A stretch of DNA of 64,000 nucleotides from a virus (Duplodnaviria > Caudoviricetes), in the IMG/VR virus record IMGVR_UViG_2775506835_000006, positions 1 through 64,000 of that record. The stretch is one strand, 5' to 3'. Each line of letters opens with the position of its first letter. The stretch's first letter is position 1. A program made the position numbers and the translations under genes. Of this stretch, positions 38,695 to 62,842 are shown piece by piece. Below the pieces are notes generated by a model. The model was given only the letters and a program-made list of their open reading frames with translations. It did no database searches and was not told the origin of the DNA.

Positions 38695-40109
38695 TACTCT
38701 ACCTCCAATGCTCGCAGCTCTTTCACCACGCTCATCAGAAGGTCAACGGCTTCTTCCAGCTGTGCAATGGCTTCTTCCGCACTGTCAGCAGGGTCGGGGA
38801 GGTCGTTATAGTCCAAAACGCTGTCGTCCCGAATCAAACCGAGATCAAGGCTGTTGCTCTTGGCGGCAATCTCCTCGCGCGTGAAACAGTTCCAGCGTTC
38901 ATCCTGTACCGTGTGACGGTCATCCGAGCGGTAAGCCGCCTCAAAGCTCGTAAAATGTTCCGTTTTTAGTGGATTTGTCTTGCCGAAGGAAGGCATATTG
39001 GTGCGCAAATCATAGAACCAGACCTCTTTTGTATTGCCCTTATCCGCCGCTCCGCGCGTGAAAAACAGCACATTGGTTTTTACGCCCTGCGCATAAAAAA
39101 TTCCGGTGGGCAGACGCAACACCGTATGCAGATTGCATTTTTCCATCAAGTCCTCACGGATCTTCTCTCCATCACCGTCGGCAAACAAGACGTTATCTGG
39201 TAGCACCACAGCGGCGCGCGATTTCCCATTTGGTTTCAAGCTTCGATAAATGTGTTGCAAGAAATTAAGCTGCTTATTGCTGGTGGGGTAGGTAAAGTCG
39301 TCACGGGTAGCTCGCTCACCGCCCTTCTTAGTACCGAAAGGCGGATTGGTCAGCACCACATCAAATCCGCTCATTTGCTTACCGAAGTTGGAGAGGGTAT
39401 CACCCAGCAAAATTTGTCCGTCAATATCATGGAGCATGGCGTTCATCAAAGCGAGACGGTGGGTTTCGTGCACCAGCTCACATCCGGTGAAGGCCGCTTC
39501 TCGCTGAAATTTGGCGGTATCGGCATCCAAATCGAAAAGCTGATCAGTGTGTTCTTTAATATAGCGGTCGGCGGCGATCATAAAGCCAAACGTGCCGCAG
39601 GCAGGGTCGTTGCATTTTTCTCCGGCCTGTGGGTCAACAAGGCGGGTCATTACATCGATCAGTACGCGAGGCGTAAAATACTGTCCGGCGCCAGACTTCT
39701 TTTCATTGGCATTCTTTTCAAGCAATCCTTCATAGAGATTGCCCAACCCCTCTTCCCGGGCGGAATACCAGTCCAGAGAATCGATGGTGGCAATGATTTT
39801 TTCAAGGTTTTTCGGTTCTTCGATGTTGGAGGAAGCCCCTTGGTAAATCTCCCGGACACGTCCGGTGCATTGCTCACCCAGGTGGTTAAGCAGTTCTTTG
39901 TAAAAATGTTTCAACTCCGTACCGCTTAAAGCAGTCAGTTTATTCCAGCGATAATCCTCTGGAATGTGCTCTTCGGTACCTGTTTCTTTTGCCATTTTTA
40001 AAAAAAGAATATACGTGAGTTCGGTGACATATTGGTGGTAGGTAATCCCATCATCCCGCAGTACGTTACATAAGTTCCATAGTTTTGATACGATTTCTTG
40101 GGTTGTCAT
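38694..40109 (-). CDS. hsdM: Type I RM methyltransferase (m6A)
   Basis: GQYFTPR, DPACGT, NPPF. Confidence 0.96.
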   Translation of the reverse strand: MTTQEIVSKLWNLCNVLRDDGITYHQYVTELTYILFLKMAKETGTEEHIPEDYRWNKLTALSGTELKHFYKELLNHLGEQCTGRVREIYQGASSNIEEPKNLEKIIATIDSLDWYSAREEGLGNLYEGLLEKNANEKKSGAGQYFTPRVLIDVMTRLVDPQAGEKCNDPACGTFGFMIAADRYIKEHTDQLFDLDADTAKFQREAAFTGCELVHETHRLALMNAMLHDIDGQILLGDTLSNFGKQMSGFDVVLTNPPFGTKKGGERATRDDFTYPTSNKQLNFLQHIYRSLKPNGKSRAAVVLPDNVLFADGDGEKIREDLMEKCNLHTVLRLPTGIFYAQGVKTNVLFFTRGAADKGNTKEVWFYDLRTNMPSFGKTNPLKTEHFTSFEAAYRSDDRHTVQDERWNCFTREEIAAKSNSLDLGLIRDDSVLDYNDLPDPADSAEEAIAQLEEAVDLLMSVVKELRALEVE

Positions 40110-43100
40110 GCAGTTTTTCCTCCGTCGTCGTATAGATATTCATTGAGTTCTATTACAATGCTCTCTAATTTATTATGAAACACTTTGTTTATCTTTGAAA
40201 AACCGCCCTGCGATTTGAAACGTCCGTCCTCGTCAAACACAGATATATTTAGAACAGATTCCTCCATTAGGTACTTTTCCATGCGACCAATCCAGCCCAT
40301 CTCCATTTTGGAAAAAGAGTGCGATTTTTTTAACCTGTCTACTGCGCGGCGAATGCGGGCTTCGTGGCTTAGAAGTGTGGAACCGATGGCATACCGGCGA
40401 ATCAAACTGATAATGTCCGCAGCAATTTCTTCGTTGGTAAGCTCAGAGAGCGCGGTATTCAGCTGCTGGGCAGTAAAGCCCTCCCGGTCTAATGAGAGCC
40501 GCAAAGTTTTAAGCGTGTCCCGTGTCAGCTCCTTAGGGCGGGTGCAGACGATGCTTAAAGCGGCAATCTCGTTCATGTTGTTTTTTACGTAGTCGGCAAA
40601 CGCATCCAGATAATCTTCTGGCTTGTTGCCTTTCCCATATCCGCGCTCATGGCTGATGAGGCGGTCTTCTTTGTCGGAAATCACTACGGGGCGGCGGCCA
40701 TTGGTGTGTATCTCATCCAATAGGGCAAAGAGCATGTCACCGTTTAAGAGGTGGGTTTTGGCATCTTCGGGGCTGCGTTCCAGCACGTCACCAATAAACT
40801 GTGTTGGGTCAAGCCCTCCGGACAAATCTATAAAGTGCTCCATTGCCTTTGCGTCCATATCGCGCTTTTTGCGCTGTATCTTGGCAAGTATCTGGTTGAT
40901 TTGATATTGGACCTGCTGTGGTTCCTACATCGTTTCCAGACCGTTCAGAAGTTGCTCAAAGGTAGCAGAGGGATTTACGACAACGGGTTTCATAGTATTC
41001 AGTTTGTCCAAGTCCTCATACACGCCCACCGCATCGTAAATCTCGAAATGGGTCTTATGTATATCCGGACAGAGACGGGTGGCACGCCCCAGCATCTGCT
41101 CGTACAGGATACGGGATTTTACCTTGCGCATAAACACAAGGCTTGTGATTTCCGGCACGTCGATACCGGTCGTCAATAAATCCACCGTCACAGCGATGCT
41201 GGGAAATCGTTCATTTTTAAAACGTTTGATTGCTTCCAGTACCTTTTTCTTGTTGCCGCCGCCCACACTGCCGGTGATTTTCATAATGGCGTCGTTATCG
41301 ACGCCGCGTTCAGTGTATAACTCTTTTAAGATCTTTACAATCAAATCCGCATGCTGGTCGTCCACGGCATAAATCAAGGTTTTACCTTGTTCCGGCGATT
41401 CAGGGTCGATATCTTGGGAAATTTCTTCCAGTATTGCTCGGTTAAACGGCTCGGTGATAACCTGTCGGTTAAATGTTTCTACATCAAACTGTAATTCGTC
41501 CTCAAGCGCATCGCTGTTGGTTATTTCACCTGTTACCGGATCGTAGATGGCCAATGTTTCGCCTTTGGTGTAGTGAATGCCATTTTTACTGAGGTCTGTT
41601 CCCAAAAGATGAGGCGCATCGTGATCCACCAAATAGCCTTCGATGACTGCTTCCCGGTAAGAATAGGTGAATACCGGACGGCCAAAAATCTCCGTTGTGT
41701 GCTTGGCAGGAGTTGCGGTAAGGGCGATCTTGACGGCATCAAAATAGTCAATTACCGTACGGTATTTACTGACATAATCCCGCTGGTCACGATACAAAAG
41801 TTCATCTTCACCCATTTCTTTATCCAATATGTAGCCACGGTGCGCTTCGTCAATGATAATTAGGTCATAATCCGTTACGGCGGGCATGCTTTCTTCATCG
41901 TTATACAGGAGGCGCTTGACCATTCCCTGTACGGTACTTATTTGAACGCGGGTTTCCGGATCTATGGATTTTTCATCCAGACCTTTAATGTTATATATGT
42001 CGTCCAGCGTCATCAATTCTTCCAGCTTAACTTCTTTGAAAACATCCTGCGCTTGTTCACCCAAGGCAGTTCGGTCGACCAAGAAAAGGATTCGACGGAA
42101 ACGCCCCGTTTTTAGGAAACGATAGATCATTCCTAAAATGGTTCTGGTTTTGCCGGTACCGGTTGCCATGGCGAGCAAAGCCGTGTTTTGTCCATCTATA
42201 ATTGCCTGTTCAACGGCACGGATTGCCTTTAGCTGGTATTCACGCAAATTCAGTCCGTCTTTATCACGCAATAAATCGTAGGGCGCTGCTTGGAGCGTTT
42301 GATTTGCGCTTGCAATGTCTTTTTTTAATAGTTCCATCATGCCGGAAGGGCTGATCCAGCCTTGCAACGCTCTGGGGGAATTTGACGGCTGACGCAGATC
42401 AAGAAACCATATACCGGACTTTGTTTCCAACTGCTTCAAATAGGGTCTGCCGTTGGTAGCAAATGTAAAGGGAACTTTGTAAGCTCCCCATGTGCCAATT
42501 AGATAATTTGTATCCTCTTCCCGGATGCAGCGGGGGTAATCCTTGCCTTGATAATCAATGACCGATGGAATGTCCTTGTGTTCGGCTTTGGCTTCAATGA
42601 TACCCACCAGTTTCGTGTCAATGAATAAGGCGTAATCGGCAAATCCCTTCGCTCCCAGTTTTGATTTTGTTGGCCACTCGGCAATGGCAAGGTTCCGCCC
42701 CTTCGTCGGGCGGGTCCCCTTGGAATAACGAAGATGGATTGTATCTGCCTCCCAGCCAACTTTCCGCAATTGTTCATCTATTAAATATCTTGTTTCGGCC
42801 TCTGATTTTTGCCGCTGGCTGGCAGCCTTGCTGGCGCGTGCCTTACGATCAGTTTGAGAAACCGACGGGGCAGAAGCCGCTTGCGCTTCGGCTTGTTTTA
42901 GCAGCAATTTTTCTTGCTCGTCTATGGTTTTGGTGTCCGGGAGATTTGTTTCCGGCGCTTGCCGCGGCAACGTAAAAGGCTGATTTTGATAATTCCAATC
43001 GCCGTAAGTTTGCATAAACCATTCGCAAAGGCTGTGCGCCATTTGCAACAGGGTCTTTCCGTCTTCGATAGACGCATAGTTTTCATGTACCGCACGGTTG

Positions 43101-43369
43101 CGTGCTTTTCGCAAAGCGTGAAGAACATCTATGATATCTCGTGTAAGTAAGCCTTCGTTACTTAAACGGTTAATGCGGGCAATGGCTGTATTTTCTGTAG
43201 GTAATGATATTTTATCGTAGGTGAACATAAGGTTTGCAATTGTTTCGCCTACCATTCCCAGCTTCATCAGGCAGGAATTAGGATCTGAATAAAGATAGGC
43301 TTCTGCTGTTTTCCCCAGCTGAGATAAAACTGGAAACTCCTGATCCATAAAGCTGAAATTACTTCCCAT
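40106..43369 (-). pseudogene. hsdR: Type I RM restriction subunit interrupted by in-frame TAG at 40927-40925
   Basis: ADY..EAK, ATGTGKT, DEAHR, QMLGRATR; ..ETM*EPQQ.. continues in frame into the 250-aa ORF (1087 codons in total). Confidence 0.9.
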
Positions 43370-43874
43370 CTTTTAATCCTCCTCTAAAAGATTGAATAAT
43401 CCATTTACTAGCTTTTAAGTATTGCATGAAATAACCCATATTTTCCCCAACGGGCGGCCCCTGAAATTTTTATGTACTCACGTGAAATCTGAACTTAGCA
43501 CATAGTAAGTTGCCATGGCTCTGTCAGTCCCTTTGCAGTAACATAATCCTAGAGATATCACCATATTCCACCATTTTCTTCATTATAATTCATTAATGCG
43601 AGCAATACAAGCAGAGTATGGAAAAGCTGTCAAAGACAAAACCTCGGTGGCCATTTGTAGCCTCAAGAGATTAATCAAATAGGGTGTTTTCTGCTACCAT
43701 AAATGTACCGAAAAACAATCCGATATCAAGCGATAAATGCGATTTAAAAAAATGATAAAATAATTGCTTATGATAAAAATATTTGGTATAGTTAATACAA
43801 AGATTATTTAAAGATTTACGTTTTAATGAGTAAGCATTTATTAAGTTATCTGGCAGGGAAATCAACAGAATGAG

Positions 43875-46800
43875 GTGGCAATTGTGGGGCAAGGGAAAGA
43901 GAATATTTATCTGCGCATAGAAATGATGACGGTGGTCAATTATGCACTGCAGCAAAATTCTGTGCCGGTAATCCAGGAAATTAAAATTGAAAACGCTACA
44001 AAACAAGACATTACTGATGTTACAATTCAGGTACAAAGCAGTCCAGCTATTGTATGTCCTTTTGCTTTAAATATAGCTGCGCTTTCAGCAGGAGAATCTT
44101 ATTCTATTAGGGAGCCTTCGCTTGTATTAGACGGCGCGTATTTAGCGGGATTAACAGAGCGTATCAACGTAATATTGCAAATTTTTGTAAAAAAAGAGTC
44201 AAATACTTTAGCTTCCTTTGAAAGGTCTCTGACAGTTCTGGCTTTTGACGAGTGGCCGGGAATAACGGTTCTCCCGGAACTCCTGACTGCATTTATCTTA
44301 CCAAACCATTCGGAAGTAGTACAAATAAATGCGAAAGCGGCAAAATTTTTGGAACAGTGGAGTGGAGATCCTTCCTTAGATGCATATCAGTCTCGCGACC
44401 CCAACCGAGCCCGGTTGCAGGCAGCCGCCATATACGGTGCTTTGCAGGCGCAAAATATTGTATATTCGGTTCCGCCAGCCAGTTTTGAAGCAATTGGCCA
44501 ACGTATACGATTATGCGATGCTGTTATGCAGCAAAAGATGGGGACCTGTATGGACTTAACGTTACTCTATGCCGCCTGTTTGGAGGCCGCTGGATTGCAT
44601 CCGTTGCTTCTATTGCAGCCGGGCCATATTTTTGCAGGCGTATGGTTGGAGGACTTAACGTTTCCGGAGGCAATACAGGATGATCCTTCTCTAATAACAA
44701 AGCGTTTGGCGGACGGTGTCAACGAAATTGCTGTTGTGGAATGTACCGCGTTTACAGCTGGCAAAGGGTTAAGCTTTGAACAGGCATCTTCTGCTGCGGA
44801 ACAGAAACTGACGGGAGGGTCGTTGGACTGCCTGATTGATGTTTTTCGTGCAAGATTAAGTGGAATTCACCCTCTACCTTTGCGCGTTTTGGATGGAAAT
44901 CAATGGACGATTGCTCGTGATGAAGTAGATATTGAAAAGATTACAAAGGCTCCTGCGTCAAAGATCGAAACCGTTCGCGTTTTGGAAGGCCATCCAGAGA
45001 ATGCTGGAAAAATGGCGCAGTGGGAACGAAAATTGCTTGACTTAGGAATGCGGAATACATTGCTAAATCTCCGTCTTACGCGAACGGTTATTCCAATTCT
45101 GTCTCCGTCTCTCCGCGATTTAGTGGAGGCACTGGTGGATCGAGGCGAATTTGGTATTGCGTCGCGTCCGGATGAATGGTCTGTCCGTGAGGAAGATCAA
45201 AAGGATCCGGAAAAGCTCGTGTGTACAAGCAATATACATCATTTAATTAAGTGTGAATTTCATAATATGCGATTGCGTACGTCTCTCAGCGAAGGGGAAT
45301 TGGCCCGGTCTGTCATCCATTTATACCGTTCCGCTAGAACCGCTTTGGAGGAAAACGGGGCAAATACGCTGTATTTAGCCATAGGTTTGCTGCGATGGTA
45401 TGAAACGAAAACAAGTCAAACAGCGAGATATGCGCCGGTCGTGTTGTTGCCAGTGGAGATTGTCCGGAAATCTGCCTTGAAAGGCTATGTAATCCGCTCC
45501 CGAAGTGATGAGGAACCACAGATAAACGTTACACTTTTGGAGAAGCTCAAACAAGATTTTGAAATTACCATTAGCGGGTTGGACCCATTGCCGCAGGATG
45601 AAAACGGCTTAGATATTCGGCTTATTTTGGTCAGGATGCGTAGGGCAATTATGGATCAACGCGGATGGGATGTTCTGGAAACAGCAGTTCTTGGAGTTTT
45701 CTCTTTTTCCCAGTTTGTAATGTGGAATGATATACGTAATCGTGCGGAAGATTTGCAAAAAAATAGACTTGTGCGCAGTTTAATGGATGGAAAACTGGCG
45801 TGGATGCCACCGGCAATGCAATTGGGAGCATGCGTTCCGGAAGAAGGTGTTTTGTTGCCTATTCCAGCGGATGCATCCCAGCTTTATGCTATCGAAGCGG
45901 CGGCCCGTGGAGAGAGTTTTGTATTGCATGGCCCGCCAGGCACAGGCAAATCCCAGACAATTACGGCCATGATAGCCAATGCGGTTGCACAGGGTAAGAC
46001 GGTTCTTTTTGTTGCAGAAAAAATGGCGGCTCTATCGGTTGTACAGCGCCGGTTAGAAGAAATAGGCATTGGACCGTTTTGCTTGGAATTACATTCTAAT
46101 AAGTCTCAAAAGCATGCTGTATTGGAGCAACTGCGTATGGCAACAGAAATCGCCAATCGAAATGAATCCGCGAACTATAAAGAACAAGCGGAGCAAGCAG
46201 CGCAAATGCGTAAGGAGTTGGATGCGTACGCGCGTTCTCTACATCAAAAGAGAGCGTCGGGCCTATCTCTTTTTGAGATGATCAGTGGCTATGAAAAATG
46301 CCGGCTTGCGCCGGATACCGTTCATTTCTCCGATGAATTTGCCTTTTCAGCTAATTGCTCTGTGTTGGCTAAGTATAAACTGTTGATTGGTCAGCTTATC
46401 GCTGCTGGCAAGGCGATTGGACATCCATATGGAAACCCGTTGCGTTTGATTCCTTTATCCGTTTATACGCAGCAGTTGCACTTCGGTTTGCCTAACGCGC
46501 TGATTTCTTACCGATCTGCTTTAGAGCAGCTTGAAGAGGCAGGGACGCAGTTTTCAGAAGCTTTGGATCGGAAGGTACCGGATAGTTTGGAAGAGTGGAA
46601 ACAACTTTATCAGATAGCCGAAGCGTTAATGAAATGGATTTTCATTCCAAGAGCTTGGGCAAAGGATGAAACCTTTTCTTATTCCATGCAGAAGATGAGA
46701 GAAATGTCACGGCATTACCAAAAGGCACGCGAACTTTCCGATGATTTAAACGGTTCGTGGAACAAAGAGTTTTTAAAACAAGATGGCGAAGCTTTACTTA

Positions 46801-49667
46801 CACAATGGCGGCAAATTTCTAGTCAATGGTTTTTAACAAAGGCGTTAGGTCAAAACAAAATAGAGAGTCAACTTTCGCCGTTTGCCCGCAGAATTGTAAA
46901 TAAAACGTTGTTGGAACGGGACCTAGAACGATTGGTCAATTATCAAAAGGAGCAGTCTGCTGCCAATGAGTTGTTTACGTTCTATAAAGAGTATTTGGAG
47001 CCAGTTTTTAAGGGCGAAGATACGGACTGGAAACAACTCGAAACACAAATTGAACAGGCATTGCACGATGCGTCTGAGTTAGCTGAATTGACTGGTGGAG
47101 AGGAAATGCGTCTCCGTTTTGCTGCCCGAAAAGAACTTCAGGGCACAATCGGGCAAATGATAGAATCTTATTCTGTTATGCAAGACGCCAAATCCTCGCT
47201 GTACTCCCTGCTGGAGGTATATGACGGAGAATGGGGGCCAGCTGATTGGTTACATGGGCAATTGCAATTTTGTAATCAGATGGAAAAACATATTGAGATG
47301 CTGCGTGATTGGATTTTATGGAATCGCACCTGCCAGGAAATAGAAAAAGAGGGACTTGGACCGTTGGTGAGAGCTTATGAAAATGGGCTGGAACATGAAA
47401 ATGTTGAAAGTGCTTGTTTTCGAGGCATTTATAAAGCGTTAATTGAGCATACCATTGACGAGGATCCTGCACTGTTGCGGTTTTCCGGCGCGATGTTCAA
47501 TGAAAAGATTCAGCAATTTAAACAAATGGATCAAAAATTGCAGAAATTGGCGAAGGTTGAAATATACAACCAATTGACAGCCAAGATGCCTCATTTTGAG
47601 CTGGAGGCAGTGCAAAGTTCGGAAGTGGGTATACTGCAAAGAGCCATTCGCAGTGGTGGCCGAGGAATCAGTATCCGACGGTTGTTTGAACAAATTCCTG
47701 AACTTTTGACTAGATTGTGTCCCTGCATGCTTATGAGTCCTATTTCAGCGGCGCAATACTTGAATCCGAAATGTAAGCCTTTTGATATTGTGGTGTTTGA
47801 CGAAGCTTCTCAAATGCCAACTTGCAAAGCAGTAGGAGCGATCGCCAGGGGGAAGAGTGCGGTGATTGTGGGTGATCCCAAACAGATGCCACCGACCAGT
47901 TTTTTCTCCGGCAATACAGTAGATGAAGATAATTTACAGCAAGAAGATTTGGAAAGCATTCTGGATGATTGCCTGGCGATCCAATTGCCGCAGGCGTATT
48001 TGCTCTGGCACTATCGAAGCCATCATGAAAGCCTGATCTCTTTTAGTAATAGTCAATTTTATGAGAACAAACTTTATACGTTTCCATCGGCGGATGATTT
48101 GGCATCCAAAGTTTCGTTAGTGCATGTAGAAGGCTTTTTTGATCGGGGAAAAACAAGACAAAATAAAGCAGAAGCGAAAGCGGTCATCCATGAGTTACAA
48201 AGGCGTTGCCACAATCCAGTTTTTGCAAACCAGAGTGTGGGCGTTGTAACGTTTAATATAACACAACAGAGTCTGATCGAAGATCTTTTGACAGATGCTT
48301 GTAAAGAAGATGCGGATTTAGAAGATTGGGCATACAACCGGCCTGAGCCACTGTTTATAAAAAATCTGGAGAATGTACAGGGTGATGAGCGGGACGTTGT
48401 ATTGTTTTCTGTGGGATATGGTCCTGATGAGCAAGGCCGTATTACTATGAATTTTGGACCGCTCAATCGGGACGGCGGTTGGTGCAGGTTAAACGTAGCT
48501 GTTTCCCGAGCGCGGGAAGAAATGATAGTGTTTTCTACTATCACTGCGGAGCAGATCAATTTATCCAGGTGCGGCGGGGCAGGTGTAGCTGCCTTAAAAG
48601 CATTTTTAAGGTATGCCAACGGTGAGCGAATCGCGGAACAAAAAGAGACAGGACAGGAGCATACGATTCGTAATGGGATTGCGGACATGCTTTGTTGTAA
48701 GCTGACCGATGAGGGATATGAAACCCGGACAATGATTGGCCGTTCCGACTTTCGGATAGATGTAGGTGTTGTGGATCCAAGTCAGCCGAAACAATATTTG
48801 CTGGGTATTTTGTTAGACGGCCCTATGTACGGCGCAGCTAAAACAACGCGTGACCGTGAAATTGCTCGAGCGGATGTATTAAAAAAGCTGGGGTGGGAGC
48901 TTCATCGCATTTGGTCAATAGATTGGTGGATCAACAGTCAAAAAGAATTTGATCGTTTACTGGAACATATAAAGCAAACCGTTGAGAGTCGTAAAAAGCT
49001 CCAAGCGGATCCAGAGTACAACCTGTCCGTTAAATCAAGTAAGCGCTTGGTGGCAGATAGCTGCGCGCAGTATGCACCATGTGTCCAGGAATCATGTATT
49101 TTACTTTATGAAGCCGCCTCGTTGGCGAAAGAGACGCTCTCTTCCGACGCTTTTTTATTGCCGCAGTATGATAATCGAATTAAAGAGGCGTTTGAACAAG
49201 TCCTGAGTGTAGAGGCTCCTATTAGAGAAAGTTTACTAATCCGGCGCGTTCTGCAAAGTTTTGGATTTGGAAGGACTGGCGCCCGGCTGCAGGAACGGGC
49301 AGAGATTTTGTTGAAGCAGATGGGTCTTTCCTATACAATGCAGCGAGGCGAAAAATTTTACTGGCGCAATGACCAGAACCCCGATACATATTCAGAATTC
49401 CGTCAATCTGGTATAGGAAATCACAAGCGAGACGCGCAGGATCTACCTGTAGAAGAAGTGTCGAATGCGGTTTGCAGGGTTTTGCAGGATAAGGTTGGTC
49501 TGCAAAAAGAGGACCTTATTCGTGAAACTGCAAGGCTGCTAGGCTATGCGAGATCGGGTAATGTTGTCGTTGAAGTTGTGACCTACGGAATAAAACATGC
49601 CTTAAAGACAAGTAAAATACTTGTAGACGACACAGCCCATTTGTATAACTTAAAACAAAATAGATAA
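43875..49667 (+). CDS. DUF4011 / SF1 helicase / Vsr-like nuclease / DUF3320 protein (Hhe-like anti-phage)
   Basis: WERKLLDL..RN.LLN, GPPGTGKS, DEASQ, VQGDERD, RLNVAVSRAR, RIWS.DWW. Confidence 0.85.
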   Translation: MAIVGQGKENIYLRIEMMTVVNYALQQNSVPVIQEIKIENATKQDITDVTIQVQSSPAIVCPFALNIAALSAGESYSIREPSLVLDGAYLAGLTERINVILQIFVKKESNTLASFERSLTVLAFDEWPGITVLPELLTAFILPNHSEVVQINAKAAKFLEQWSGDPSLDAYQSRDPNRARLQAAAIYGALQAQNIVYSVPPASFEAIGQRIRLCDAVMQQKMGTCMDLTLLYAACLEAAGLHPLLLLQPGHIFAGVWLEDLTFPEAIQDDPSLITKRLADGVNEIAVVECTAFTAGKGLSFEQASSAAEQKLTGGSLDCLIDVFRARLSGIHPLPLRVLDGNQWTIARDEVDIEKITKAPASKIETVRVLEGHPENAGKMAQWERKLLDLGMRNTLLNLRLTRTVIPILSPSLRDLVEALVDRGEFGIASRPDEWSVREEDQKDPEKLVCTSNIHHLIKCEFHNMRLRTSLSEGELARSVIHLYRSARTALEENGANTLYLAIGLLRWYETKTSQTARYAPVVLLPVEIVRKSALKGYVIRSRSDEEPQINVTLLEKLKQDFEITISGLDPLPQDENGLDIRLILVRMRRAIMDQRGWDVLETAVLGVFSFSQFVMWNDIRNRAEDLQKNRLVRSLMDGKLAWMPPAMQLGACVPEEGVLLPIPADASQLYAIEAAARGESFVLHGPPGTGKSQTITAMIANAVAQGKTVLFVAEKMAALSVVQRRLEEIGIGPFCLELHSNKSQKHAVLEQLRMATEIANRNESANYKEQAEQAAQMRKELDAYARSLHQKRASGLSLFEMISGYEKCRLAPDTVHFSDEFAFSANCSVLAKYKLLIGQLIAAGKAIGHPYGNPLRLIPLSVYTQQLHFGLPNALISYRSALEQLEEAGTQFSEALDRKVPDSLEEWKQLYQIAEALMKWIFIPRAWAKDETFSYSMQKMREMSRHYQKARELSDDLNGSWNKEFLKQDGEALLTQWRQISSQWFLTKALGQNKIESQLSPFARRIVNKTLLERDLERLVNYQKEQSAANELFTFYKEYLEPVFKGEDTDWKQLETQIEQALHDASELAELTGGEEMRLRFAARKELQGTIGQMIESYSVMQDAKSSLYSLLEVYDGEWGPADWLHGQLQFCNQMEKHIEMLRDWILWNRTCQEIEKEGLGPLVRAYENGLEHENVESACFRGIYKALIEHTIDEDPALLRFSGAMFNEKIQQFKQMDQKLQKLAKVEIYNQLTAKMPHFELEAVQSSEVGILQRAIRSGGRGISIRRLFEQIPELLTRLCPCMLMSPISAAQYLNPKCKPFDIVVFDEASQMPTCKAVGAIARGKSAVIVGDPKQMPPTSFFSGNTVDEDNLQQEDLESILDDCLAIQLPQAYLLWHYRSHHESLISFSNSQFYENKLYTFPSADDLASKVSLVHVEGFFDRGKTRQNKAEAKAVIHELQRRCHNPVFANQSVGVVTFNITQQSLIEDLLTDACKEDADLEDWAYNRPEPLFIKNLENVQGDERDVVLFSVGYGPDEQGRITMNFGPLNRDGGWCRLNVAVSRAREEMIVFSTITAEQINLSRCGGAGVAALKAFLRYANGERIAEQKETGQEHTIRNGIADMLCCKLTDEGYETRTMIGRSDFRIDVGVVDPSQPKQYLLGILLDGPMYGAAKTTRDREIARADVLKKLGWELHRIWSIDWWINSQKEFDRLLEHIKQTVESRKKLQADPEYNLSVKSSKRLVADSCAQYAPCVQESCILLYEAASLAKETLSSDAFLLPQYDNRIKEAFEQVLSVEAPIRESLLIRRVLQSFGFGRTGARLQERAEILLKQMGLSYTMQRGEKFYWRNDQNPDTYSEFRQSGIGNHKRDAQDLPVEEVSNAVCRVLQDKVGLQKEDLIRETARLLGYARSGNVVVEVVTYGIKHALKTSKILVDDTAHLYNLKQNR

Positions 49668-49745
49668 TTATCTTGCAGTTCGTTCTCACTTTATTCTTTA
49701 TCTTTTACTGAAGATATTGCATAGGGCCTACATTGAATCATCATT

Positions 49746-49848
49746 CTAAGGAAGTAAGCCGGTCAACTGGCACAAGGATTCAAATCCCTTTACCCTCCGA
49801 CAAAAGCCGCATGGTTAAGCCGTTTTCGGACAACCATGCGACTTTTTT
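49746..49848 (+). repeat. Degenerate att relic (tRNA-Ser 3' end plus terminator)
   Basis: Mismatched copy of 50173-50276. Confidence 0.8.
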
Positions 49849-50106
49849 ATTGCTTTCAGGCAGGTTCAACAAAAACAGCGCGAAGCTATCCGGAAATGGA
49901 TAGTTGCGCCACGATTGACAGATTCCAGTTTCGGGTGCAAAATATTTTATAATGTAAAGAAAATCTAATCGAACTCATCTAAAATATCGAGGAGTTCAGA
50001 ACCATGCAGTGATGGGGAGAAGATCGTCGGGAAGCTTCTGAGCGAGTGTAATGGCAAAAATAAAAGCGCAGCTATTCATTGCGGACGGCTGTATTAAAAT
50101 TTTAGC

Positions 50107-50127
50107 CATTCCCACTCTATTCCCACT
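50107..50127 (+). repeat. Putative integrase arm sites (left of core)
   Basis: ATTCCCACT x2 with 11-bp period. Confidence 0.55.
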
Positions 50128-50166
50128 TTATGTTCAAAGTATTGCATAAAGCCACAAAATAAATCA

Positions 50167-50228
50167 CCCCTGCTAAGGGAGTAGGTCGGGCAACTGGCGC
50201 AAGGGTTCAAATCCCTTCTTCTCCGCCA
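50167..50228 (+). other. att core: 3' portion of tRNA-Ser(GCT), not a complete tRNA
   Basis: CCC-CTGCTAA-GGGAG, long variable arm, GGTTCAAATCC, CTCCGCCA; 5' acceptor strand and D-arm absent. Confidence 0.9.
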
Positions 50229-50276
50229 AAAGCCGCATGGTTAAGCCGTTTTTCGGACAACCATGCGGCTTTTTTG
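50228..50276. terminator. Terminator after att / end of int2
   Basis: AAAAGCCGCATGGTT..AACCATGCGGCTTTTTT. Confidence 0.85.
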
Positions 50277-50325
50277 TTATGCAAAAGTACGCGGTTTGTG
50301 GCACTGCCGCGTGCAAAAAATGAAG

Positions 50326-50347
50326 CTATTACACACCTATTACACAC
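50326..50347 (+). repeat. Putative integrase arm sites (right of core)
   Basis: CTATTACACAC x2 tandem. Confidence 0.6.
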
Positions 50348-50352
50348 AGGAT

Positions 50353-51467
50353 TTAAAGCTGATCCACAGCTTTTAAGAGTTCTTCCAAAGGAGTATGAAT
50401 GTAGTTCTCGTAGGTGGTTTCAAAATCAGCGTGCCCGCCCGCTTCTGCAATCACCGCTGGGGCAATGGTGCTCTTGCTTGCGAGGCGCGTGAAATAGGTA
50501 TGCCGGCAAGTGTAGGGAACAAGGTGCCGGACGCCTACACGCTCTACAGTCTCCCAATAGGCAGCATAGAAATTGTCTTCATTCATTTCAAGTAGCTTGC
50601 GGCGTCGGGAATGCATGAGTTCCCGGATGATGGGGACGATCTTTGTGGCGATCGGGATTCTTCGGTTTGTGCCTGCTTCGGTTTTGTTTCCTCCGATCAT
50701 ATACCGTTCATCCAGATAAATGTTTTTTAAAAGGATGTCGAAGAGTTCTCCCGGGCGCATACCGGTATATAGAAGAATCAGTATGTATCCGGTAAAAGGG
50801 TGCAGCCTCTGGCCGATGTCGTTGAGCTCATTAAAGTCTTTCCAAAAACGCTGCACTTCCAGATCGTCAAACGCTTCTCGCTGTTTCTTTTTTAACTCAG
50901 GAAGTTCCAGATTCTCTGTTTTATTATAGGTGCAGATTTCTTTTTTCATCGCCAGTTTGTACAGGTGCGAAAGCATGTCTCGCATATCCCTGGCGGGGTA
51001 ATAGGTATTCGTCATTCTATTGATAACGGTTTGCATATCATCCACACCGGTTTCGGAAATTGGCTTCCGATGCAGGGCGGCCAGTCGCTTCCAGGCATAC
51101 CCAAGCTTGTCCTTCTGCGATTTGCTGAGCTTTTGGTATTTGCGCGATTCCAGAAACTCGTTGTGCAATTGTTCAAAGGTGATACCTGCTTTGTCGCTTG
51201 TGCCCGCCAAAGTAGGGAGGTAGTCCACCGCATCCTTTTTCCTTTCAAAGGTTTTGGTGGCCTTCTTCCGATGAAGATTTCCGTCGTCTCCTATGTAGTA
51301 GTAAAGCGTGACTTCGGCAACGTACTTCTTACCGCGCTGATATACGGTTCCGGTACCGTTCCCCCTGGACTTAGGTTTGCGCTCCCTGGCAGCGAGACCC
51401 CGCAGTAAAGGCAATATGCAGAACTGTCGGGAATCTCCTTTCCGCATTTTTTGTTTTTACAAATCAC
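50353..51467 (-). pseudogene. int: Tyrosine integrase 2, frameshifted near 51392
   Basis: AAGGAGG+GTG at 51467 opens VICKNKKC..CLYCGVS; homology to int1 resumes (KPKSRGNGTG) in another frame. Confidence 0.85.
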
Positions 51468-57132: not shown

Positions 57133-57936
57133 GTGTACCTGAAGAAGACCTGTAAAGCTGGAATCACTATAGAAGTACACAAGAGCTATTCCGCCCGGTA
57201 CGGCCGAAACATCCCAAGGGGAAAAAGAGAAAGCCGCACACCGGAGGCGATGAAAAAATACAACGAGAAGATGGCGTGGAGAAAGCTCACCCGGCAGATC
57301 AACGCGAACTTTGTTCCCGGGGATCTATTCCTGACCTGCACCTACCGGAAGGAGGTGCGTCCGGATCCACAGCGGGCGAAGCAAAATATAGAGAATTTCC
57401 TGGACCGTGTACGTAGGCGTTTCAAAAAGGCAGGGGTGGAGTTTAAATACATTCTGGTGACAGCCTATGGAAAGCAGGGCGGGATCCATCATCACGTGAT
57501 CATTCCTGCATTTGATTATCAGGTTGTTACAGCATGTTGGCCGCACGGAGCTATGCGGTTTGAGGCCCTGTATCCAGATGGCGAATACTCCGCCCTTGCC
57601 TGGTATCTTATCAAACAATCCCGCCTGTCCCCAGATGGAAGGGAATCCATTCCCGGGAATCGATGGTCCGGAAGCCGGAATCTTATCAAGCCGGTGGAGA
57701 AGGTGCAGGAGGTAGACGCCAGGGAGTGGCGCGAGGAACCGAAACCTGTTAAAGGCTATTACATAGATCCGAATTCTGTAGAGAATGGGATTTCGCCGGT
57801 CACGGGGATTCCATATCAGTTCTACAGGATGATTCAAATACAGTCATTACAAAAGGAAAGAGAAAGTTTAACAAATACAAAGCGATCCAAGGGAGAGAAA
57901 CTAAAAGATAAACGAAGTAAAGGACATTCTAAATAG
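57133..57936 (+). CDS. HUH-family replication initiator-like protein
   Basis: FLTCTY, IHHHVII, LAWYL; C-terminal tail differs from copy 1. Confidence 0.8.
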   Translation: MYLKKTCKAGITIEVHKSYSARYGRNIPRGKRESRTPEAMKKYNEKMAWRKLTRQINANFVPGDLFLTCTYRKEVRPDPQRAKQNIENFLDRVRRRFKKAGVEFKYILVTAYGKQGGIHHHVIIPAFDYQVVTACWPHGAMRFEALYPDGEYSALAWYLIKQSRLSPDGRESIPGNRWSGSRNLIKPVEKVQEVDAREWREEPKPVKGYYIDPNSVENGISPVTGIPYQFYRMIQIQSLQKERESLTNTKRSKGEKLKDKRSKGHSK

Positions 57937-58037: not shown

Positions 58038-58204
58038 GTGCGAATCGCAAGCTCACATAGATTTCTTAAGAGATTCGCACCTCGCATAGTTACTGGATTT
58101 TTTGCATTTTAATTCTCATACAGGGGAATTGTTTTCTCATTTTTATGGGATTCGCATTTTAGGCCTTTACAACCCGCATGGTTACTGGGTATAATAGGGG
58201 TGCA
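58038..58204 (+). promoter_or_regulatory. CRISPR leader with inverted repeat and promoter
   Basis: GTGCGAATC(58038)..GATTCGCAC(58080); AT-rich stretch; TTTACA(58166)-N18-TATAAT(58190). Confidence 0.75.
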
Positions 58205-58566
58205 GTCAAAATCCACGCCCCGTAAGGGGACGGAAACCCCCTGCTTCCCGATGCGGTAAATCCCGAAGTCGTGTCAAAATCCACGCCCCGTAAGGGGACG
58301 GAAACAGCTCTTTCTACATCCAACTGATAAGTTTCATAGGTCAAAATCCACGCCCCGTAAGGGGACGGAAACGGCTGACCGCCAAGCCGCACCAGTAAAA
58401 TGCGCGTCTAAATCCACGCCCCGTAAGGGGACGGAAACATTCCAAAGCTGCTTTAGCTTTGTAGGATTACCGGTCTAAATCCACGCCCCGTAAGGGGACG
58501 GAAACCCGCCCTGAATATCATTCGTCCCATAAAAGATGGGTCTAAATCCACGCCCCGTAAGGGGAC
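58205..58566 (+). CRISPR. Orphan CRISPR mini-array: 6 repeats (last truncated), 5 spacers of 35, 34, 33, 34, 34 bp
   Basis: 33-bp repeat GTC(A/T)AAATCCACGCCCCGTAAGGGGACGGAAAC at 58205, 58273, 58340, 58406, 58473, 58540; unique spacers; no cas gene in window. Confidence 0.97.
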
Positions 58567-58572
58567 AAAAAG

Positions 58573-58610
58573 AAGCGCCCATTCCGGAAACTTGCCGGAA
58601 TGGGCGCTTT
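58573..58610 (+). terminator. Terminator closing the CRISPR transcript
   Basis: AAGCGCCCATTCCGG..CCGGAATGGGCGCTTT. Confidence 0.85.
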
Positions 58611-58715
58611 GTTCGCGTCTAAAAACTGCATCTGTTCCATTTGTGCGATACTTAGAAATAATAGAAGGTATCAATATATCGCATACCACAGCGGTTAAGA
58701 ATGGAGGCAGGCAGC

Positions 58716-59126
58716 GTGGGGCGCAGAGACCTGAATTTGGATGAATACAATATCACAAAACTACAGTATCGAGAACTTCATAACTTTTGTTTGCAATATG
58801 CTGATAAGAAACAGCAGCTTGCGGAACTGAAAAATCCATATGGGAGTTCACAGGGTTACAATACGCCGACTGGCTGTACAATAGGAGATCCAACTGCAAG
58901 GACAGCGGAACGAATCATAATCCTTTCTAAAGAGATTGAAGCAATTGAACAAACCGCTATGGAGATCGCCCCGGAAGAATACCAGAATATTCTGTTGGCG
59001 GTAACGGAGGACGTTCCCTGGCATTTCCTACAGCTGTTAAAAGGGTTAGAAATGGGAAGGCATGACTTTGAATGTGCTAGAAGGCGCTTTTACTATAATC
59101 TTGCACAAAGAAAAGGGATGATATAA
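58716..59126 (+). CDS. Putative late transcriptional activator (RinA/ArpU-like position)
   Basis: YRELHNFCLQY..GDPTARTA..AIEQTA..RRRFYY; precedes late module. Confidence 0.65.
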   Translation: MGRRDLNLDEYNITKLQYRELHNFCLQYADKKQQLAELKNPYGSSQGYNTPTGCTIGDPTARTAERIIILSKEIEAIEQTAMEIAPEEYQNILLAVTEDVPWHFLQLLKGLEMGRHDFECARRRFYYNLAQRKGMI

Positions 59127-59285: not shown

Positions 59286-59492
59286 TTGAATTACAAAGAA
59301 ACGATAGCAGAATGTGAGGCCGAAATAGCCGTTATTGACGCAAAGCTTGCCCAGATCAGAACCAGCAACAATTGGCTGGAGAACGCCCGATACAATCAGC
59401 TCTCTTGTATGCGCGGGGACCTGTGTCTGCAGCTCCACGCGGCACGGATCGCAGCGAGCAGGGGCCGGCCACCGGATGGAGGTGATCCGTAA
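59286..59492 (+). CDS. Small coiled-coil hypothetical protein, first late gene
   Basis: Homolog of 9815-10021. Confidence 0.75.
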   Translation: MNYKETIAECEAEIAVIDAKLAQIRTSNNWLENARYNQLSCMRGDLCLQLHAARIAASRGRPPDGGDP

Positions 59493-60013
59493 TGGCATTA
59501 AAAGCAAAACAAAAACGATTCGTTGAAGAATACCTTGTTGATTTAAATGCAACGCAGGCGGCAATCCGCGCCGGATATTCTCCGGAATCTGCTGGATCAA
59601 TCGGGAGTGAAAACCTGCATAAACCTGAAATCCGCACGCGTATAGACAAGGCTATGGCCGAACGCTCGAAACGGACCGGAATCAACGCCGACCGTGTCCT
59701 TATGGAATTGGGTAAGATTGCCTTCATCAATGCCACCGACGTGATCAATATGGATGATGCGACAATCTTGTCTGAAGCCAATCGCGACGACACAGCCGCA
59801 ATTGCATCCGTGAAAGTCAAGACCATACCCGGAGAAGATGGAGATGGTGTCGAACGGGAAATCCGCTTGGCTGATAAACTAAAAGCTTTGGAATTGCTGG
59901 GTAAACATTTGGGCCTCTTTACCGATAAGGTAGAAGTGAAAGGGCAGATCGACACCGGGCAGAAAAAGCTTGAGGACATTTTAAGCCAGCTGCGAGGGGA
60001 TTCCGGTGAATGA
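59492..60013 (+). CDS. terS: Terminase small subunit (Terminase_2 type)
   Basis: KQKRFVEEYLVDLNATQAAIRAGYS..KALELLGKHLGLF. Confidence 0.95.
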   Translation: MALKAKQKRFVEEYLVDLNATQAAIRAGYSPESAGSIGSENLHKPEIRTRIDKAMAERSKRTGINADRVLMELGKIAFINATDVINMDDATILSEANRDDTAAIASVKVKTIPGEDGDGVEREIRLADKLKALELLGKHLGLFTDKVEVKGQIDTGQKKLEDILSQLRGDSGE

Positions 60014-61370
60014 GCGCCTGATACTTTCAGAAAAGTATAAAGCCTTTCTCCGGTGCCGGGCACCGTATGAGTTCCTGGAGGGGACCACGGCCGCCGGCAA
60101 AACCACGGTGGGGCTGTTCAAATTCATGCTTCGCGTTGCGGAAAGCCCGAAGAAAATACATATCCTTTCCGGCCTTGACCTTGGCACAATCGAGAAGAAC
60201 ATTATCAACAAAGACCTGGGGATTCTTGACGACTTCGGCCCGCTGGTGGAATACAATGCGTCCGGCCGCGGACAGAATTCCTTGCCGCATTTGCTTTTCC
60301 ATGCGCCGTCAGAGGACAAAATCGTTTACGTGCTTGGCTACGATAACAAGGCCCGCTGGAAAAAGGCTCTGGGCGGACAGTACGGGTGCCTGTACATTGA
60401 TGAGATCAATATTGCAGACATGGAATTCGTCCGTGAAGCGTCTATGCGTTGCGACTACCTGTTGGCCACGCTCAACCCGGATAATCCGGATCTTCCTATC
60501 TACTCGGAATACATCAACCATGCCCGTCCTTTGCCGGAGTGGGAAAACGAGACACCAAAAGAAATATTGTCGATGCTCAACGAAAAACCAAAGCCAGGCT
60601 GGGTGCATTGGTTCTTTTCTTTTGAACATAATCTCGGGTTGCCAGCGGAAAAGGTGCAGCAGATCAGGGACAGCGTCCCGAAGGGTACAAAGCTTTATAA
60701 AAACAAAATTCAGGGCCTGCGCGGCCGCGCAACAGGGCTGGTGTTCAACTTGCAGCCGCATAATCTGGTTTCCGCCAAGTGGCTTCTGGAACAGATGCAG
60801 AGCAATCAAATTAAATTTCTGCAAGTGTCTGCAGGCGTAGATACATCGTATTCGCAGCAGTCAGCCGATACATTTGCATTCGTGTTTTCCGGTATTACGA
60901 CCGACAGGCGGAAGATCACGCTGGCCACGGAGGTACACAACAACCGGGGTCTAACAACGCCGCTGGCGCCCAGCGATATACCACCTCTGCTGATCACGTT
61001 CTTGGAGAAGTATCGCACCATCTTTGATCTGTTCGCCCGCAGCGTCTTCATCGATTCCGCGGATGAGGCCACGATCATTGAATGCCAGAAATACAAACGT
61101 CTGCACGGAAGCGTCTATGAGTTTTGCCCGGCCTGGAAGAAGACAAAAATCATTGACCGTATCAATTTACAGTCCGGCTGGCTGGCGAGCGGGGATTATC
61201 TCCTTGTAACAGAATATTGCAGAGCGGAGATTGATGAACTGAATGCATATAGCTGGAAGGAAGACAAAGACAATGAGCCGGAGGACGGCAACGACCATAC
61301 GATCAACGCAGACCAGTACAGCTGGCTGCCGTACAAAGGCAGGATAGGGGGCAAGGTGATGGTTACTTGA
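60006..61370 (+). CDS. terL: Terminase large subunit (PBSX/Terminase_3-like)
   Basis: GTTAAGKT, YIDE, TLNP, GVD, DGNDH. Confidence 0.9.
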   Translation: MNERLILSEKYKAFLRCRAPYEFLEGTTAAGKTTVGLFKFMLRVAESPKKIHILSGLDLGTIEKNIINKDLGILDDFGPLVEYNASGRGQNSLPHLLFHAPSEDKIVYVLGYDNKARWKKALGGQYGCLYIDEINIADMEFVREASMRCDYLLATLNPDNPDLPIYSEYINHARPLPEWENETPKEILSMLNEKPKPGWVHWFFSFEHNLGLPAEKVQQIRDSVPKGTKLYKNKIQGLRGRATGLVFNLQPHNLVSAKWLLEQMQSNQIKFLQVSAGVDTSYSQQSADTFAFVFSGITTDRRKITLATEVHNNRGLTTPLAPSDIPPLLITFLEKYRTIFDLFARSVFIDSADEATIIECQKYKRLHGSVYEFCPAWKKTKIIDRINLQSGWLASGDYLLVTEYCRAEIDELNAYSWKEDKDNEPEDGNDHTINADQYSWLPYKGRIGGKVMVT

Positions 61371-62842
61371 AATTGAGGGAGAAGGTGAAAGATATGCTGC
61401 GCAATTGGCTGCAAATCCAGCCCGCAACGCCGAACGGGATCGTAATCCAGGAGCCCTTGGATTTTCAGGCGTCGGTGATACGCAATCAAATTTGGTATCG
61501 CGGGGAGGCTGCGGAGCTGGAGCAGCTCTACAAGCAGCTTGGAGCGCAGGACAGTACGAACGCATCCCGGTTTTGGGCTGCCGTGCCCGCCAACGCGATG
61601 AAACTGCGCAAAATTCATTCCGGCCTGCCCGCGATCCTGGTAGACACACTGGCGTATTTGGTCAAGTCGGATATGGATGATGTAGCTTTTAAAGACAACT
61701 GCGGGGAAGCAGAGTGGAAGGCGATCACAGAAGAACTGGATTTTCAAGATACCGTTGGACAGGGTGTCGCCGGCGCGCTGAAAGCAGCGGACGGGGCCTG
61801 GAAAATATCCATAGATATAACCGTATCTCAGTACCCGATCGTCGAGTTTTATGAAGCGGACCGCGTGGAATACATCCAAAGCCGCGGGCGTGTAATAGGT
61901 GTGAAATTTTGGTCGGACCATTCAGACGGCTATAAGGTGTACCGGCTATGTGAGGAATACGGGAAGGGGTATGTTTCGTACGCCCTGTATGACGGGACCA
62001 GTGAAGTCCCGCTCGACCGCATACCGGAGCTGGCGGAATTGAAACCGGTTGCTTTTGATGGGGACTTCATGATGGCGGTGCCGTTCAAAGTCTTTGAGAG
62101 CGCCAAATTCCCAGGCCGCGGAAAAGCTCTGTATGAAAGCAAACTGGACAGCTTTGACGCGCTGGATGAAGTCATCAGCCAATGGTGGGACGCCATGCGC
62201 GCGGGCCGGGTGAAAAAGTATATCCCACGCGACCTGTTGCCGGTAGACCCCAAAACAGGAAATCTGTTGCCGCTGAATGATTTTGGCAGCGAGTACATCA
62301 CTACGGAATCGCTGACGGATGAAAACGGCGTGAGTAGAATCGATACCATACAGCCGGAAATCCGGTATGAAGCGTTTCTGTCTTCCTATACGGCCGCGCT
62401 GGACATGTGCCTGCAGGGGGTTGTTTCCCCGGCCACTCTGGGCATTGACGTTGGTAAGATGAGCAGCGCGGAGGCCCAGCGGGAAAAAAAGGATGTCACA
62501 GGGTATACGCGCAATACCATAACCGGAGTTCTGGAAAAAGTGCTGCCGCAGCTGGTGTCGACGATCCTGATGGTCAACGATCTTATGCAGGGACGCGCCC
62601 CGGGAAACTACGAGCCATCTGTGGGCTTTGGCGAATATGGCGCACCGTCTTTTGATAGCCGGGTGGAGACAGTCAACAGGGCCGCCGCCGCCAATACCAT
62701 GAGCATAGAAACACAGGTGGATGAGCTGTGGGGGAACAGTAAAGACGACGGATGGAAGACCGGTGAAGTTGCCCGCATCAAGCAACTGCGCGGGATCGAG
62801 ACGGTAGATGGACCGCCCGCGGTGGGGGATGAGCTGGCATGA
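61367..62842 (+). CDS. Portal protein (SPP1/A118-like)
   Basis: Follows terL; WYRG, FDALDE, SPATLG. Confidence 0.85.
   Translation: MKLREKVKDMLRNWLQIQPATPNGIVIQEPLDFQASVIRNQIWYRGEAAELEQLYKQLGAQDSTNASRFWAAVPANAMKLRKIHSGLPAILVDTLAYLVKSDMDDVAFKDNCGEAEWKAITEELDFQDTVGQGVAGALKAADGAWKISIDITVSQYPIVEFYEADRVEYIQSRGRVIGVKFWSDHSDGYKVYRLCEEYGKGYVSYALYDGTSEVPLDRIPELAELKPVAFDGDFMMAVPFKVFESAKFPGRGKALYESKLDSFDALDEVISQWWDAMRAGRVKKYIPRDLLPVDPKTGNLLPLNDFGSEYITTESLTDENGVSRIDTIQPEIRYEAFLSSYTAALDMCLQGVVSPATLGIDVGKMSSAEAQREKKDVTGYTRNTITGVLEKVLPQLVSTILMVNDLMQGRAPGNYEPSVGFGEYGAPSFDSRVETVNRAAAANTMSIETQVDELWGNSKDDGWKTGEVARIKQLRGIETVDGPPAVGDELA

Follow-up and report, generated by a model that had tools for sequence, protein, structure and literature searches.

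A short CRISPR array carried by a prophage, and a compatible type III-A system in its bacterial host

A bacteriophage that lacks Cas proteins of its own may nonetheless carry guides for those of its host. Here, we studied a 64,000-nucleotide stretch of DNA (the window), positions 1 to 64,000 of the IMG/VR virus record IMGVR_UViG_2775506835_000006 (Duplodnaviria; Caudoviricetes), which corresponds to C11:429882-493881 of a 3.5-Mb bacterial genome. It holds, within a prophage that we call prophage 2, a short CRISPR array at window positions 58205-58572 on the + strand. The same genome encodes an intact type III-A operon next to an array with nearly the same repeat and a homologous leader, and two of the five phage-borne spacers match late genes of phages, in both cases antisense to the coding strand. 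The explanation we favor, at a probability of roughly 60%, is that the leader of the phage-borne array drives its transcription, that host Cas6 processes the transcript, and that the host Csm complex uses the resulting guides against rival phages.

The array consists of six 33-nt direct repeats (58205-58237, 58273-58305, 58340-58372, 58406-58438, 58473-58505, and 58540-58572), whose starts are spaced 68, 67, 66, 67, and 67 nt apart, with five spacers between them, all distinct: m1 (58238-58272, 35 nt), m2 (58306-58339, 34 nt), m3 (58373-58405, 33 nt), m4 (58439-58472, 34 nt), and m5 (58506-58539, 34 nt). Repeats 1-3 are identical, repeats 4-6 share an A to T change at position 4, and repeat 6 is a degenerate terminal repeat in which three of the last six bases are changed as well (it ends ...GGGGACAAAAAG). 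A 33-mer recurring at such regular spacing around unique inserts is no chance pattern, and the region has the features by which a CRISPR array is recognized, namely at least three near-identical direct repeats of 23-50 nt with unique spacers of similar length, an AT-rich, promoter-bearing leader on one side, and a degenerate repeat closing the opposite side. The repeat is predicted to fold into a small CCCC/GGGG hairpin followed by ACGGAAAC (-10.2 kcal/mol, z = -2.09). Rfam, which covers some repeat families only, gave no match at gathering score (CRISPR-DR36, 19.8 bits with a gathering score of 38; CRISPR-DR10, 18.4 bits with a gathering score of 39), and Tandem Repeats Finder reported nothing on the array, as expected with interspaced repeats. 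With five spacers, this is a short array and not a mini-array in the strict sense, a term defined in the accessible text of PMC11656645 as one or two spacers, single repeat units being described there as inhibitors and not guides.

The leader (58038-58204, +) contains a sigma-70-type promoter, TTTACA-18-TATAAT (58166-58195, +), that agrees with the consensus at 11 of 12 positions and is predicted to end 9 nt upstream of repeat 1; a scan of the 850-nt region returned two promoter-like sites, where 1.2 were expected. Directly 3' of repeat 6 is a terminator-like hairpin (58573-58609; 15-pair stem, -30.9 kcal/mol, z = -7.55), and 0 of 200 shuffled sequences folded equally well. An earlier note, made from the letters of the window and a list of its open reading frames, had described a leader, a promoter, six 33-bp repeats, five unique spacers, and a terminator, and all of these countable details are correct. 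The promoter on the + strand and the degenerate repeat at the distal end give the array + polarity, which is fixed by leader homology (see below) beyond what the promoter scan alone provides. Read on the opposite strand, the repeat resembles those of type I-C systems (a hairpin followed by GTGGATTTTGAC). We rejected this reading because the promoter, the polarity of the degenerate repeat, and the conserved leaders all indicate the + strand, because the I-C array of this genome has another repeat, and because both spacers with targets are antisense to coding sequence only in the + reading.

A 23-nt core of the repeat, allowing at most two mismatches, occurs 20 times in the whole genome, and its reversed control does not occur at all. 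The phage unit accounts for six of these copies and an array at C11:519135-519976 for 13, and the last is a single repeat at C11:511449-511481. The interval between the single repeat and the 13-repeat array is occupied by an intact type III-A operon comprising cas10/csm1 (E 2.1e-143), csm2 (E 2.2e-14), csm3 (E 6.3e-59), csm4 (E 3.1e-61), csm5 (E 9.1e-29), and cas6, which scored 42.6 bits against the NCBIfam model (below its cut-off of 58.65) and 59.3 bits against Pfam PF10040 (above its cut-off of 25). The type III-A affiliation that had been guessed from the repeat is thus right: the genome has an operon of cas10/csm1 to csm5 plus cas6, beside which lies an array of near-identical repeat. Compared with the repeat of this host array, phage repeats 1-3 are changed at one of 33 positions (position 8) and repeats 4-5 at two, and the 3' 25 nt of the phage repeat, comprising the hairpin and an 8-nt tag, are identical to those of host repeats 7, 8, and 10-13. 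A resemblance of the repeat end to that of Mycobacterium tuberculosis had also been proposed, and the 12-mer GGGGACGGAAAC does occur in 56 papers, the listed matches being mostly M. tuberculosis genotyping papers.

Homology between the phage unit and the host extends through the leader. The phage leader is identical to that of the 13-repeat host array at 138 of 185 positions (74.6%) and to that of the single-repeat unit beside cas10 at 124 of 185 (67.0%); the two host leaders share 138 of 185 positions with each other. The phage leader also agrees at 115 of 184 positions with the leader of a chromosomal, csm-linked array from a metagenome that lies downstream of csm5-cas6-DUF6602 and has the same leader blocks. 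These shared blocks are GTGCGAA...TTCGCACC and CTTTACAACCCGCATGG.TACTGGGTATAAT, and none of the four leaders in the alignment has lost the -10 box. The related arrays all finish with a degenerate repeat and then an immediate hairpin, and degenerate terminal repeats are found also in the unit beside cas10 (...ACAGAAAA) and in an array from an Oscillibacter metagenome-assembled genome (MAG) (...ACAAAAAC). Judged by these comparisons, the phage unit is a complete copy of the array module of this family. We rejected a recent capture from the present host arrays, given the leader identities of only 74.6% and 67.0% and the absence of any shared spacer (0). All four leaders (window 58038-58095 and its homologs) also contain an inverted pair, GTGCGAA(N~30)TTCGCAC, with a third copy, GATTCGCA, nearer the promoter, which may be a binding site for a regulator.

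Two spacers have identifiable targets. Spacer m2 matches 30/33, 30/32, and 30/34 positions in three genomes from other genera of the family, at sites lying in frame within open frames of 584-593 amino acids (..YETYQLDVERA..), one of which, when scanned, proved to be a large terminase of phrog_9 (E 4e-102). GenBank phages gave weaker matches, all within genes for the large terminase: one in Faecalibacterium phage FP_oengus and others in two Rhodococcus phages. For FP_oengus and all three genomic matches, m2 has the antisense orientation relative to the gene, and no close phrog_9 large terminase was found in its own genome, where the sole tblastn match is 23% identical over 184 amino acids. Spacer m5 runs antisense to the conserved GxND block in a tail-fiber-like phage gene with a GDSL domain, with its best match (30/34) at C11:22380-22413, in a third prophage region of the same genome; it has 4-10 mismatches in 34 positions to eight paralogs in the genome, and seven to the copy belonging to prophage 2 itself. 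The targets of two of the five spacers are thus phage late genes, matched at 88-94% identity, and both of these spacers are antisense to the coding strand, the orientation that type III systems require. The proposal that the spacers are directed against competing phages fits these two, and for the three further spacers no target was found. The lysis and GDSL module, which includes the gene matched by m5, has paralogs at about nine places including prophage 2 (C11 ~22k, ~136k, ~466k, ~511k, and ~651k; C12 ~133k, ~173k, and ~558k; C9 ~346k), so the strain is heavily polylysogenic, with related phages, and offers a setting for conflict between them.

Other searches with the spacers returned nothing credible. 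An exact scan of IMG/VR with the 24-nt cores of m1, m3, m4, and m5 gave 0 matches, and a comparison of m1-m5 with the whole genome gave nothing beyond 15 contiguous nt except the m5 paralog. Searches against plasmids recovered repeat-like arrays on two cyanobacterial plasmids only, and no protospacer; the host 13-repeat array had no match among GenBank phages. Weak matches of m1 in three family genomes (E 0.002-0.009; 14-19 contiguous nt in a transporter gene, a potassium-uptake-like gene, and a repressor-like gene) were rejected as chance. A 22-nt exact match of m1 in an order-level genome, lying in sense orientation in a tRNA-guanine transglycosylase-like gene (25/35 overall), was also rejected because about 0.1 such matches are expected over 400 genomes.

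The viral location of the array is clear, as it lies inside a prophage that spans integrase to lysis genes. Prophage 2 is a tRNA-Ser prophage whose attL-like left border is a 3' fragment of tRNA-Ser(GCT) plus terminator (50167-50278, +; 86.6% identity over 112 nt to the intact gene at C11:429667-429756), followed by the integrase (50353-51447, -; phrog_1, E 1.6e-38). The array falls between the phage replication initiation gene and the packaging genes. Directly upstream of it is Rep (57133-57936, +; phrog_3584, E 1.1e-59; PF23343, E 1.9e-15), and downstream are a gene for a 141-aa protein (58701-59126, +; phrog_11237, E 4.9e-20; no Pfam family) and the packaging module (59492-62842, +), made up of small terminase (59492-60013, phrog_51), large terminase (60006-61370, phrog_10250), and portal (61367-62842, phrog_533). 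Head genes follow the portal, and past the window end come genes for the major head protein, tape measure, tail, endolysin, and holin; the last gene of the prophage encodes a 690-aa GDSL-domain, tail-fiber-like protein and ends at C11:511397. The placement after Rep in prophage 2 given by the earlier note agrees with this map, and its label of late activator for the next gene, a member of phrog_11237, is unconfirmed. There are no cas genes between the integrase of prophage 2 and its last gene, and whole-genome searches for Cas1, Cas2, and Cas10 matched outside the window only, the window itself being without an exhaustive cas scan. The earlier statement that no cas gene lies within the 64 kb is true of the window and yet misleading, as cas10 starts at C11:511795, at a distance of 398 bp from the end of the last phage gene, 23.3 kb from the array in the phage, and 17.9 kb past the point where the window stops.

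Taken as a working system, the array would be transcribed in a lysogen from its own leader promoter, and host Cas6 would cut each repeat 8 nt before the spacer to yield CRISPR RNAs (crRNAs) bearing the 5' tag ACGGAAAC, which would then load into the host type III-A Csm complex. A rival phage that transcribes a late gene complementary to one of the phage-supplied guides would activate Csm, and its infection would be blocked, probably via a signaling-dependent accessory nuclease; the homologous genes of the prophage itself would be too different to be targeted. The phage would not have built the unit; its lineage would have captured it from a related array of a host. The host effector has features relevant to this scheme. 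Its Cas10 has a GGDD cyclase motif at residue 528 and no His in the first 128 residues, so the HD nuclease motif is probably missing. After cas6 comes a gene for a 299-aa DUF6602 protein (L010 4167-5066), 64% identical to the protein in the same position of the related metagenomic csm locus. The DUF6602 domain has been described as distantly related to the RmuC nuclease (10.1101/2024.07.02.601686), and this protein is a candidate accessory nuclease of the type III-A variant.

Several observations weigh against this interpretation. The strand agreement rests on two spacers only, and m1, m3, and m4 have no credible target in the genome, GenBank phages, plasmids, 400 family and 400 order genomes, or IMG/VR (exact 24-mers). 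Nor was a perfect protospacer present in the searched collections, in which the best matches are 30/32 and 30/34, which suggests that the true targets are unsampled. All phage repeats differ from the host repeat at position 8, and repeats 4-6 also at position 4; the leader is only ~75% identical to the host leader, and the unit may derive from a different host system. The hairpin is followed on the + strand by a weak T-tail (TTTGTT), and the scan scored it on the - strand only. The array is also missing from both of the closest sister prophages (0/2), and no CRISPR-like repeat occurs within 1.5 kb in any of 17 loci (0/17) with homologs of the 141-aa gene, found in 13 other family genomes and at one other place in the same genome. 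It is thus no conserved trait under visible selection, and its absence from the sisters and from these 17 loci makes it look like a lineage-specific capture. Finally, the csm operon abuts prophage 2 and no attR was found, so that Cas proteins borrowed from the host and Cas proteins linked to the phage are not fully separable.

Alternatively, the unit may be an inert passenger, a leader and array that the phage acquired by recombining with a CRISPR locus of a host and that now serve no function, being silent or not loaded; we consider this explanation unlikely. The two sister prophages, both on contig C12 of the same genome and with Rep proteins 94% and 86% identical, match prophage 2 at 92-96% nucleotide identity up to window position 57888 and again from 59210, and between these points they have a different 1-kb module with no repeats. 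A position at such a mosaic junction would suit a passenger, as would the absence from both sisters and from 17/17 loci of downstream-gene homologs, the lack of a target for three of five spacers, and the rarity of the repeat, which has 0 matches in IMG/VR and occurs elsewhere in one other species genome (the Oscillibacter MAG) in a scan of genome contigs and in two real arrays in a scan of metagenomes. However, the promoter matches at 11 of 12 positions and the conserved leader blocks are all kept despite ~25% divergence of the leader, the hairpin and tag are intact in five of six repeats, and the unit closes with a strong hairpin like those of the host arrays. These features speak against a passenger because decay would be expected there first. 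The two IMG/VR provirus records in which these sisters were found are 100% identical to contig C12 of the same genome; we therefore rejected them as independent relatives and assign them to this strain or a nearly identical one. The 141-aa protein has no relative in IMG/VR.

The array could alternatively serve the phage by acting on the host system itself. The accessible text of PMC11656645 describes, for most CRISPR types, RNA anti-CRISPRs that consist of phage-borne repeat units imitating those of the host, and a decoy of this kind, with phage repeats titrating host Cas6 and Csm subunits to protect the phage, would be helped by the strong predicted promoter; a leader with a single degenerate repeat also stands at the right end of the prophage. 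The decoys described there are single repeat units, that is, solitary repeats with no functional spacers, whereas here six repeats enclose five spacers of normal length, two of which match phage genes in the productive strand. In addition, no spacer of the host matches prophage 2 or the other resident prophages, so there is no visible threat to neutralize, and we judge the decoy highly unlikely. The leader and single repeat at C11:511449-511481 fit the anti-CRISPR form better, and they are on the cas10 side of the last phage-homologous base. A guide with partial complementarity could instead repress a host cas gene or another host gene, as described for prophage mini-arrays that target cas promoters in types I-B and I-F1 (bioRxiv 10.1101/2023.03.03.530964). 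Such regulation is extremely unlikely here, as m1-m5 have no match of at least 13 nt in the csm locus and its leaders (C11:511449-520143; whole-genome BLAST with a word size of 7), and type III-linked mini-arrays had no targets and were judged degraded repeats in the accessible text of the same preprint.

A different question is whether the Cas proteins belong to the host at all or whether the csm operon and its arrays travel in the same mobile element as prophage 2, which would make the phage array one of three. The earlier note had recognized that cas genes further along prophage 2 would make this an ordinary phage-encoded locus, and that outcome retains some probability, as csm adjoins the prophage end and a search right of prophage 2 for an attR copy of the tRNA-Ser fragment found none. 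Favoring linkage, cas10 starts within 398 bp of the last phage gene, and the whole interval from tRNA-Ser(GCT) to the transfer-messenger RNA (tmRNA) gene, 90.6 kb here with two prophages, cargo genes, and the csm locus, is replaced by ~5.4 kb in another genome of the same genus, in which the flanks are 91% identical. Cas10 itself is found in 0/2 same-genus genomes and in 9/400 family genomes at no more than 39% identity. However, homology to paralogous prophages stops at C11:511451, just past the terminator of the GDSL gene and at the 3' edge of the single degenerate repeat, as it does after the GDSL terminator in at least three other paralogs. Because this point precedes cas10, the csm operon is probably not part of the phage. 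Further, Cas10 is single-copy despite nine related GDSL-bearing prophage regions, and the metagenomic relative has csm5-cas6-DUF6602 and its array beside clpB, a chromosomal setting. We therefore regard a phage-linked CRISPR-Cas system as quite unlikely. Attempts to place the right border gave no further help: no duplication of the tmRNA end marking an island border was found, and a 13-mer, AACCATGCGGCTT, in the leader beside cas10, the sole exact match of at least 11 nt between the left border and the right junction, was rejected as the att core because chance would yield ~0.2 such matches and because this site is one of the conserved blocks of the leader.

The junction itself suggests another possibility, in that the phage-homologous sequence of prophage 2 passes at its last base straight into the terminal repeat of a leader-repeat unit that has no spacers. 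Prophage 2 and the type III-A locus may have been coupled by recombination, either because phages of this lineage recombine with the CRISPR locus or because the csm module moves with the phage, an idea that we hold as possible though doubtful. If true, recombination with the CRISPR locus would be a natural route by which a complete leader and array enter a phage, with type III immunity carried along. The spacer-less unit (C11:511449-511700, - strand) has a complete leader with promoter, one degenerate repeat (...GGGGACAGAAAA), and then a hairpin that also closes the GDSL gene of prophage 2; it stands back to back with cas10 and, from its sequence, is an empty array or the stump of one. The 13-repeat host array, also on the - strand, has five leader-proximal repeats ending GGAAGT and eight older ones ending GGAAAC, so that the newest host crRNAs would have another 5' tag than the older ones and the phage guides. 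Its spacers 10 and 11 are identical duplicates, and a strongly degenerate 14th repeat is followed by a hairpin.

The earlier note had also named type I-C Cas proteins as a possible partner. A complete type I-C locus is indeed present, at C12:~232.9-240.7k (L047 8874-9035 and 9226-16718), with cas3, cas5c, cas8c, cas7, cas1, and cas2, but its array has a different, 31-nt repeat, and the phage-type repeat is absent there in the repeat search. Cas1 and Cas2 occur only in this locus, on a separate contig from the type III-A locus, which has none. The I-C locus, with a 279-aa frame in the cas4 position and an array of three repeats only, is the genome's only adaptation module.

Some features of the prophage region lie outside these questions. 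The 3' end of tRNA-Ser(GCT) occurs three times in the same orientation, as the intact gene (C11:429667-429756) and as fragments within window 49715-49851 and 50100-50340, which are 385 bp apart; by their arrangement in the sequence, these three ends mark tandem integrations. The repeated motifs ATTCCCACTCTATTCCCAC and ATTACACACCTATTACACAC beside the integrase genes resemble arm-type sites. The interval that separates the lysis module of prophage 1 from the tRNA-Ser fragment (window 37330-49667) has four - strand open frames of 454, 471, 250, and 814 amino acids and one + strand frame of 1930, which may represent cargo or a further island. In prophage 2, the tape-measure gene (L009 5885-8579) is present as two overlapping frames, both matching phrog_1535, a split that could come from a frameshift or from programmed slippage.

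Viral arrays that make use of the Cas proteins of a host have already been described, and the case reported here is no new category. In Sulfolobales, viruses carry mini-CRISPR arrays that employ the Cas proteins of the host against related viruses (Medvedeva et al. 2019, PMC6858448). Those arrays are preceded by a leader and dependent on host Cas, with no cas in the virus and with spacers against related viruses, and heterotypic superinfection exclusion was proposed as their role. Our array is likewise virus-carried and preceded by a leader, and it probably shares the other features. The Sulfolobales arrays differ in having one or two spacers and in belonging to archaeal viruses, whereas the present array has five spacers and sits in a bacterial temperate phage of a host with a type III-A system. 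Their spacers hit close relatives in the same population; here, the targets are a different terminase type and a diverged paralog family, with no perfect match. Closer in setting are the multi-spacer arrays in Clostridioides difficile prophages, which rely on a host type I-B system (Hargreaves et al. 2014, PMC4173771). Both cases involve a gut Firmicute, multi-spacer prophage arrays whose spacers target, or here probably target, other phages, and cas genes elsewhere in the host. The C. difficile system is type I-B, which targets DNA and depends on a protospacer-adjacent motif, whereas the system here is type III-A and the prophage lies directly beside the cas operon; compared with that account, the present case adds leader homology to the host and an antisense orientation of the two spacers with targets. 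The phage mini-arrays surveyed in PMC11656645 and bioRxiv 10.1101/2023.03.03.530964 have near-host repeats, as here; they exploit the host effector, and most of their known targets are related viruses, both of which are probably true of the present array too. Physical contact between a temperate phage and a CRISPR repeat also has a precedent in PhiAP1.1, which integrates into the CRISPR repeats of Streptococcus pyogenes and whose cycles of integration and excision can delete or transfer spacers, a route for phages to gain pieces of arrays (Varble et al., bioRxiv 10.1101/2020.10.09.333658). That system is type II-A with an attP matching the repeat, whereas the left end of prophage 2 is a tRNA-Ser fragment, its contact with a repeat is confined to the right end, and an attP resembling the repeat was not found. 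We take the resemblance as a lead and no demonstrated mechanism.

What distinguishes the present case is the combination of a type III-A host, five spacers, a captured leader, a polylysogenic strain, and direct juxtaposition to a cas operon. It offers, from a gut anaerobe with many related prophages, a clean, well-delimited bacterial example of a phage that may supply the type III-A system of its host with guides, and it is directly testable, as the array, its promoter, a compatible effector, and two target genes are all defined. Given a Cas10 with a cyclase motif and without an HD motif, a phage-supplied guide would act via the signaling arm. This arm often halts the growth of the whole cell. 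If so, the prophage would steer an abortive-type response of its host against rival phages.

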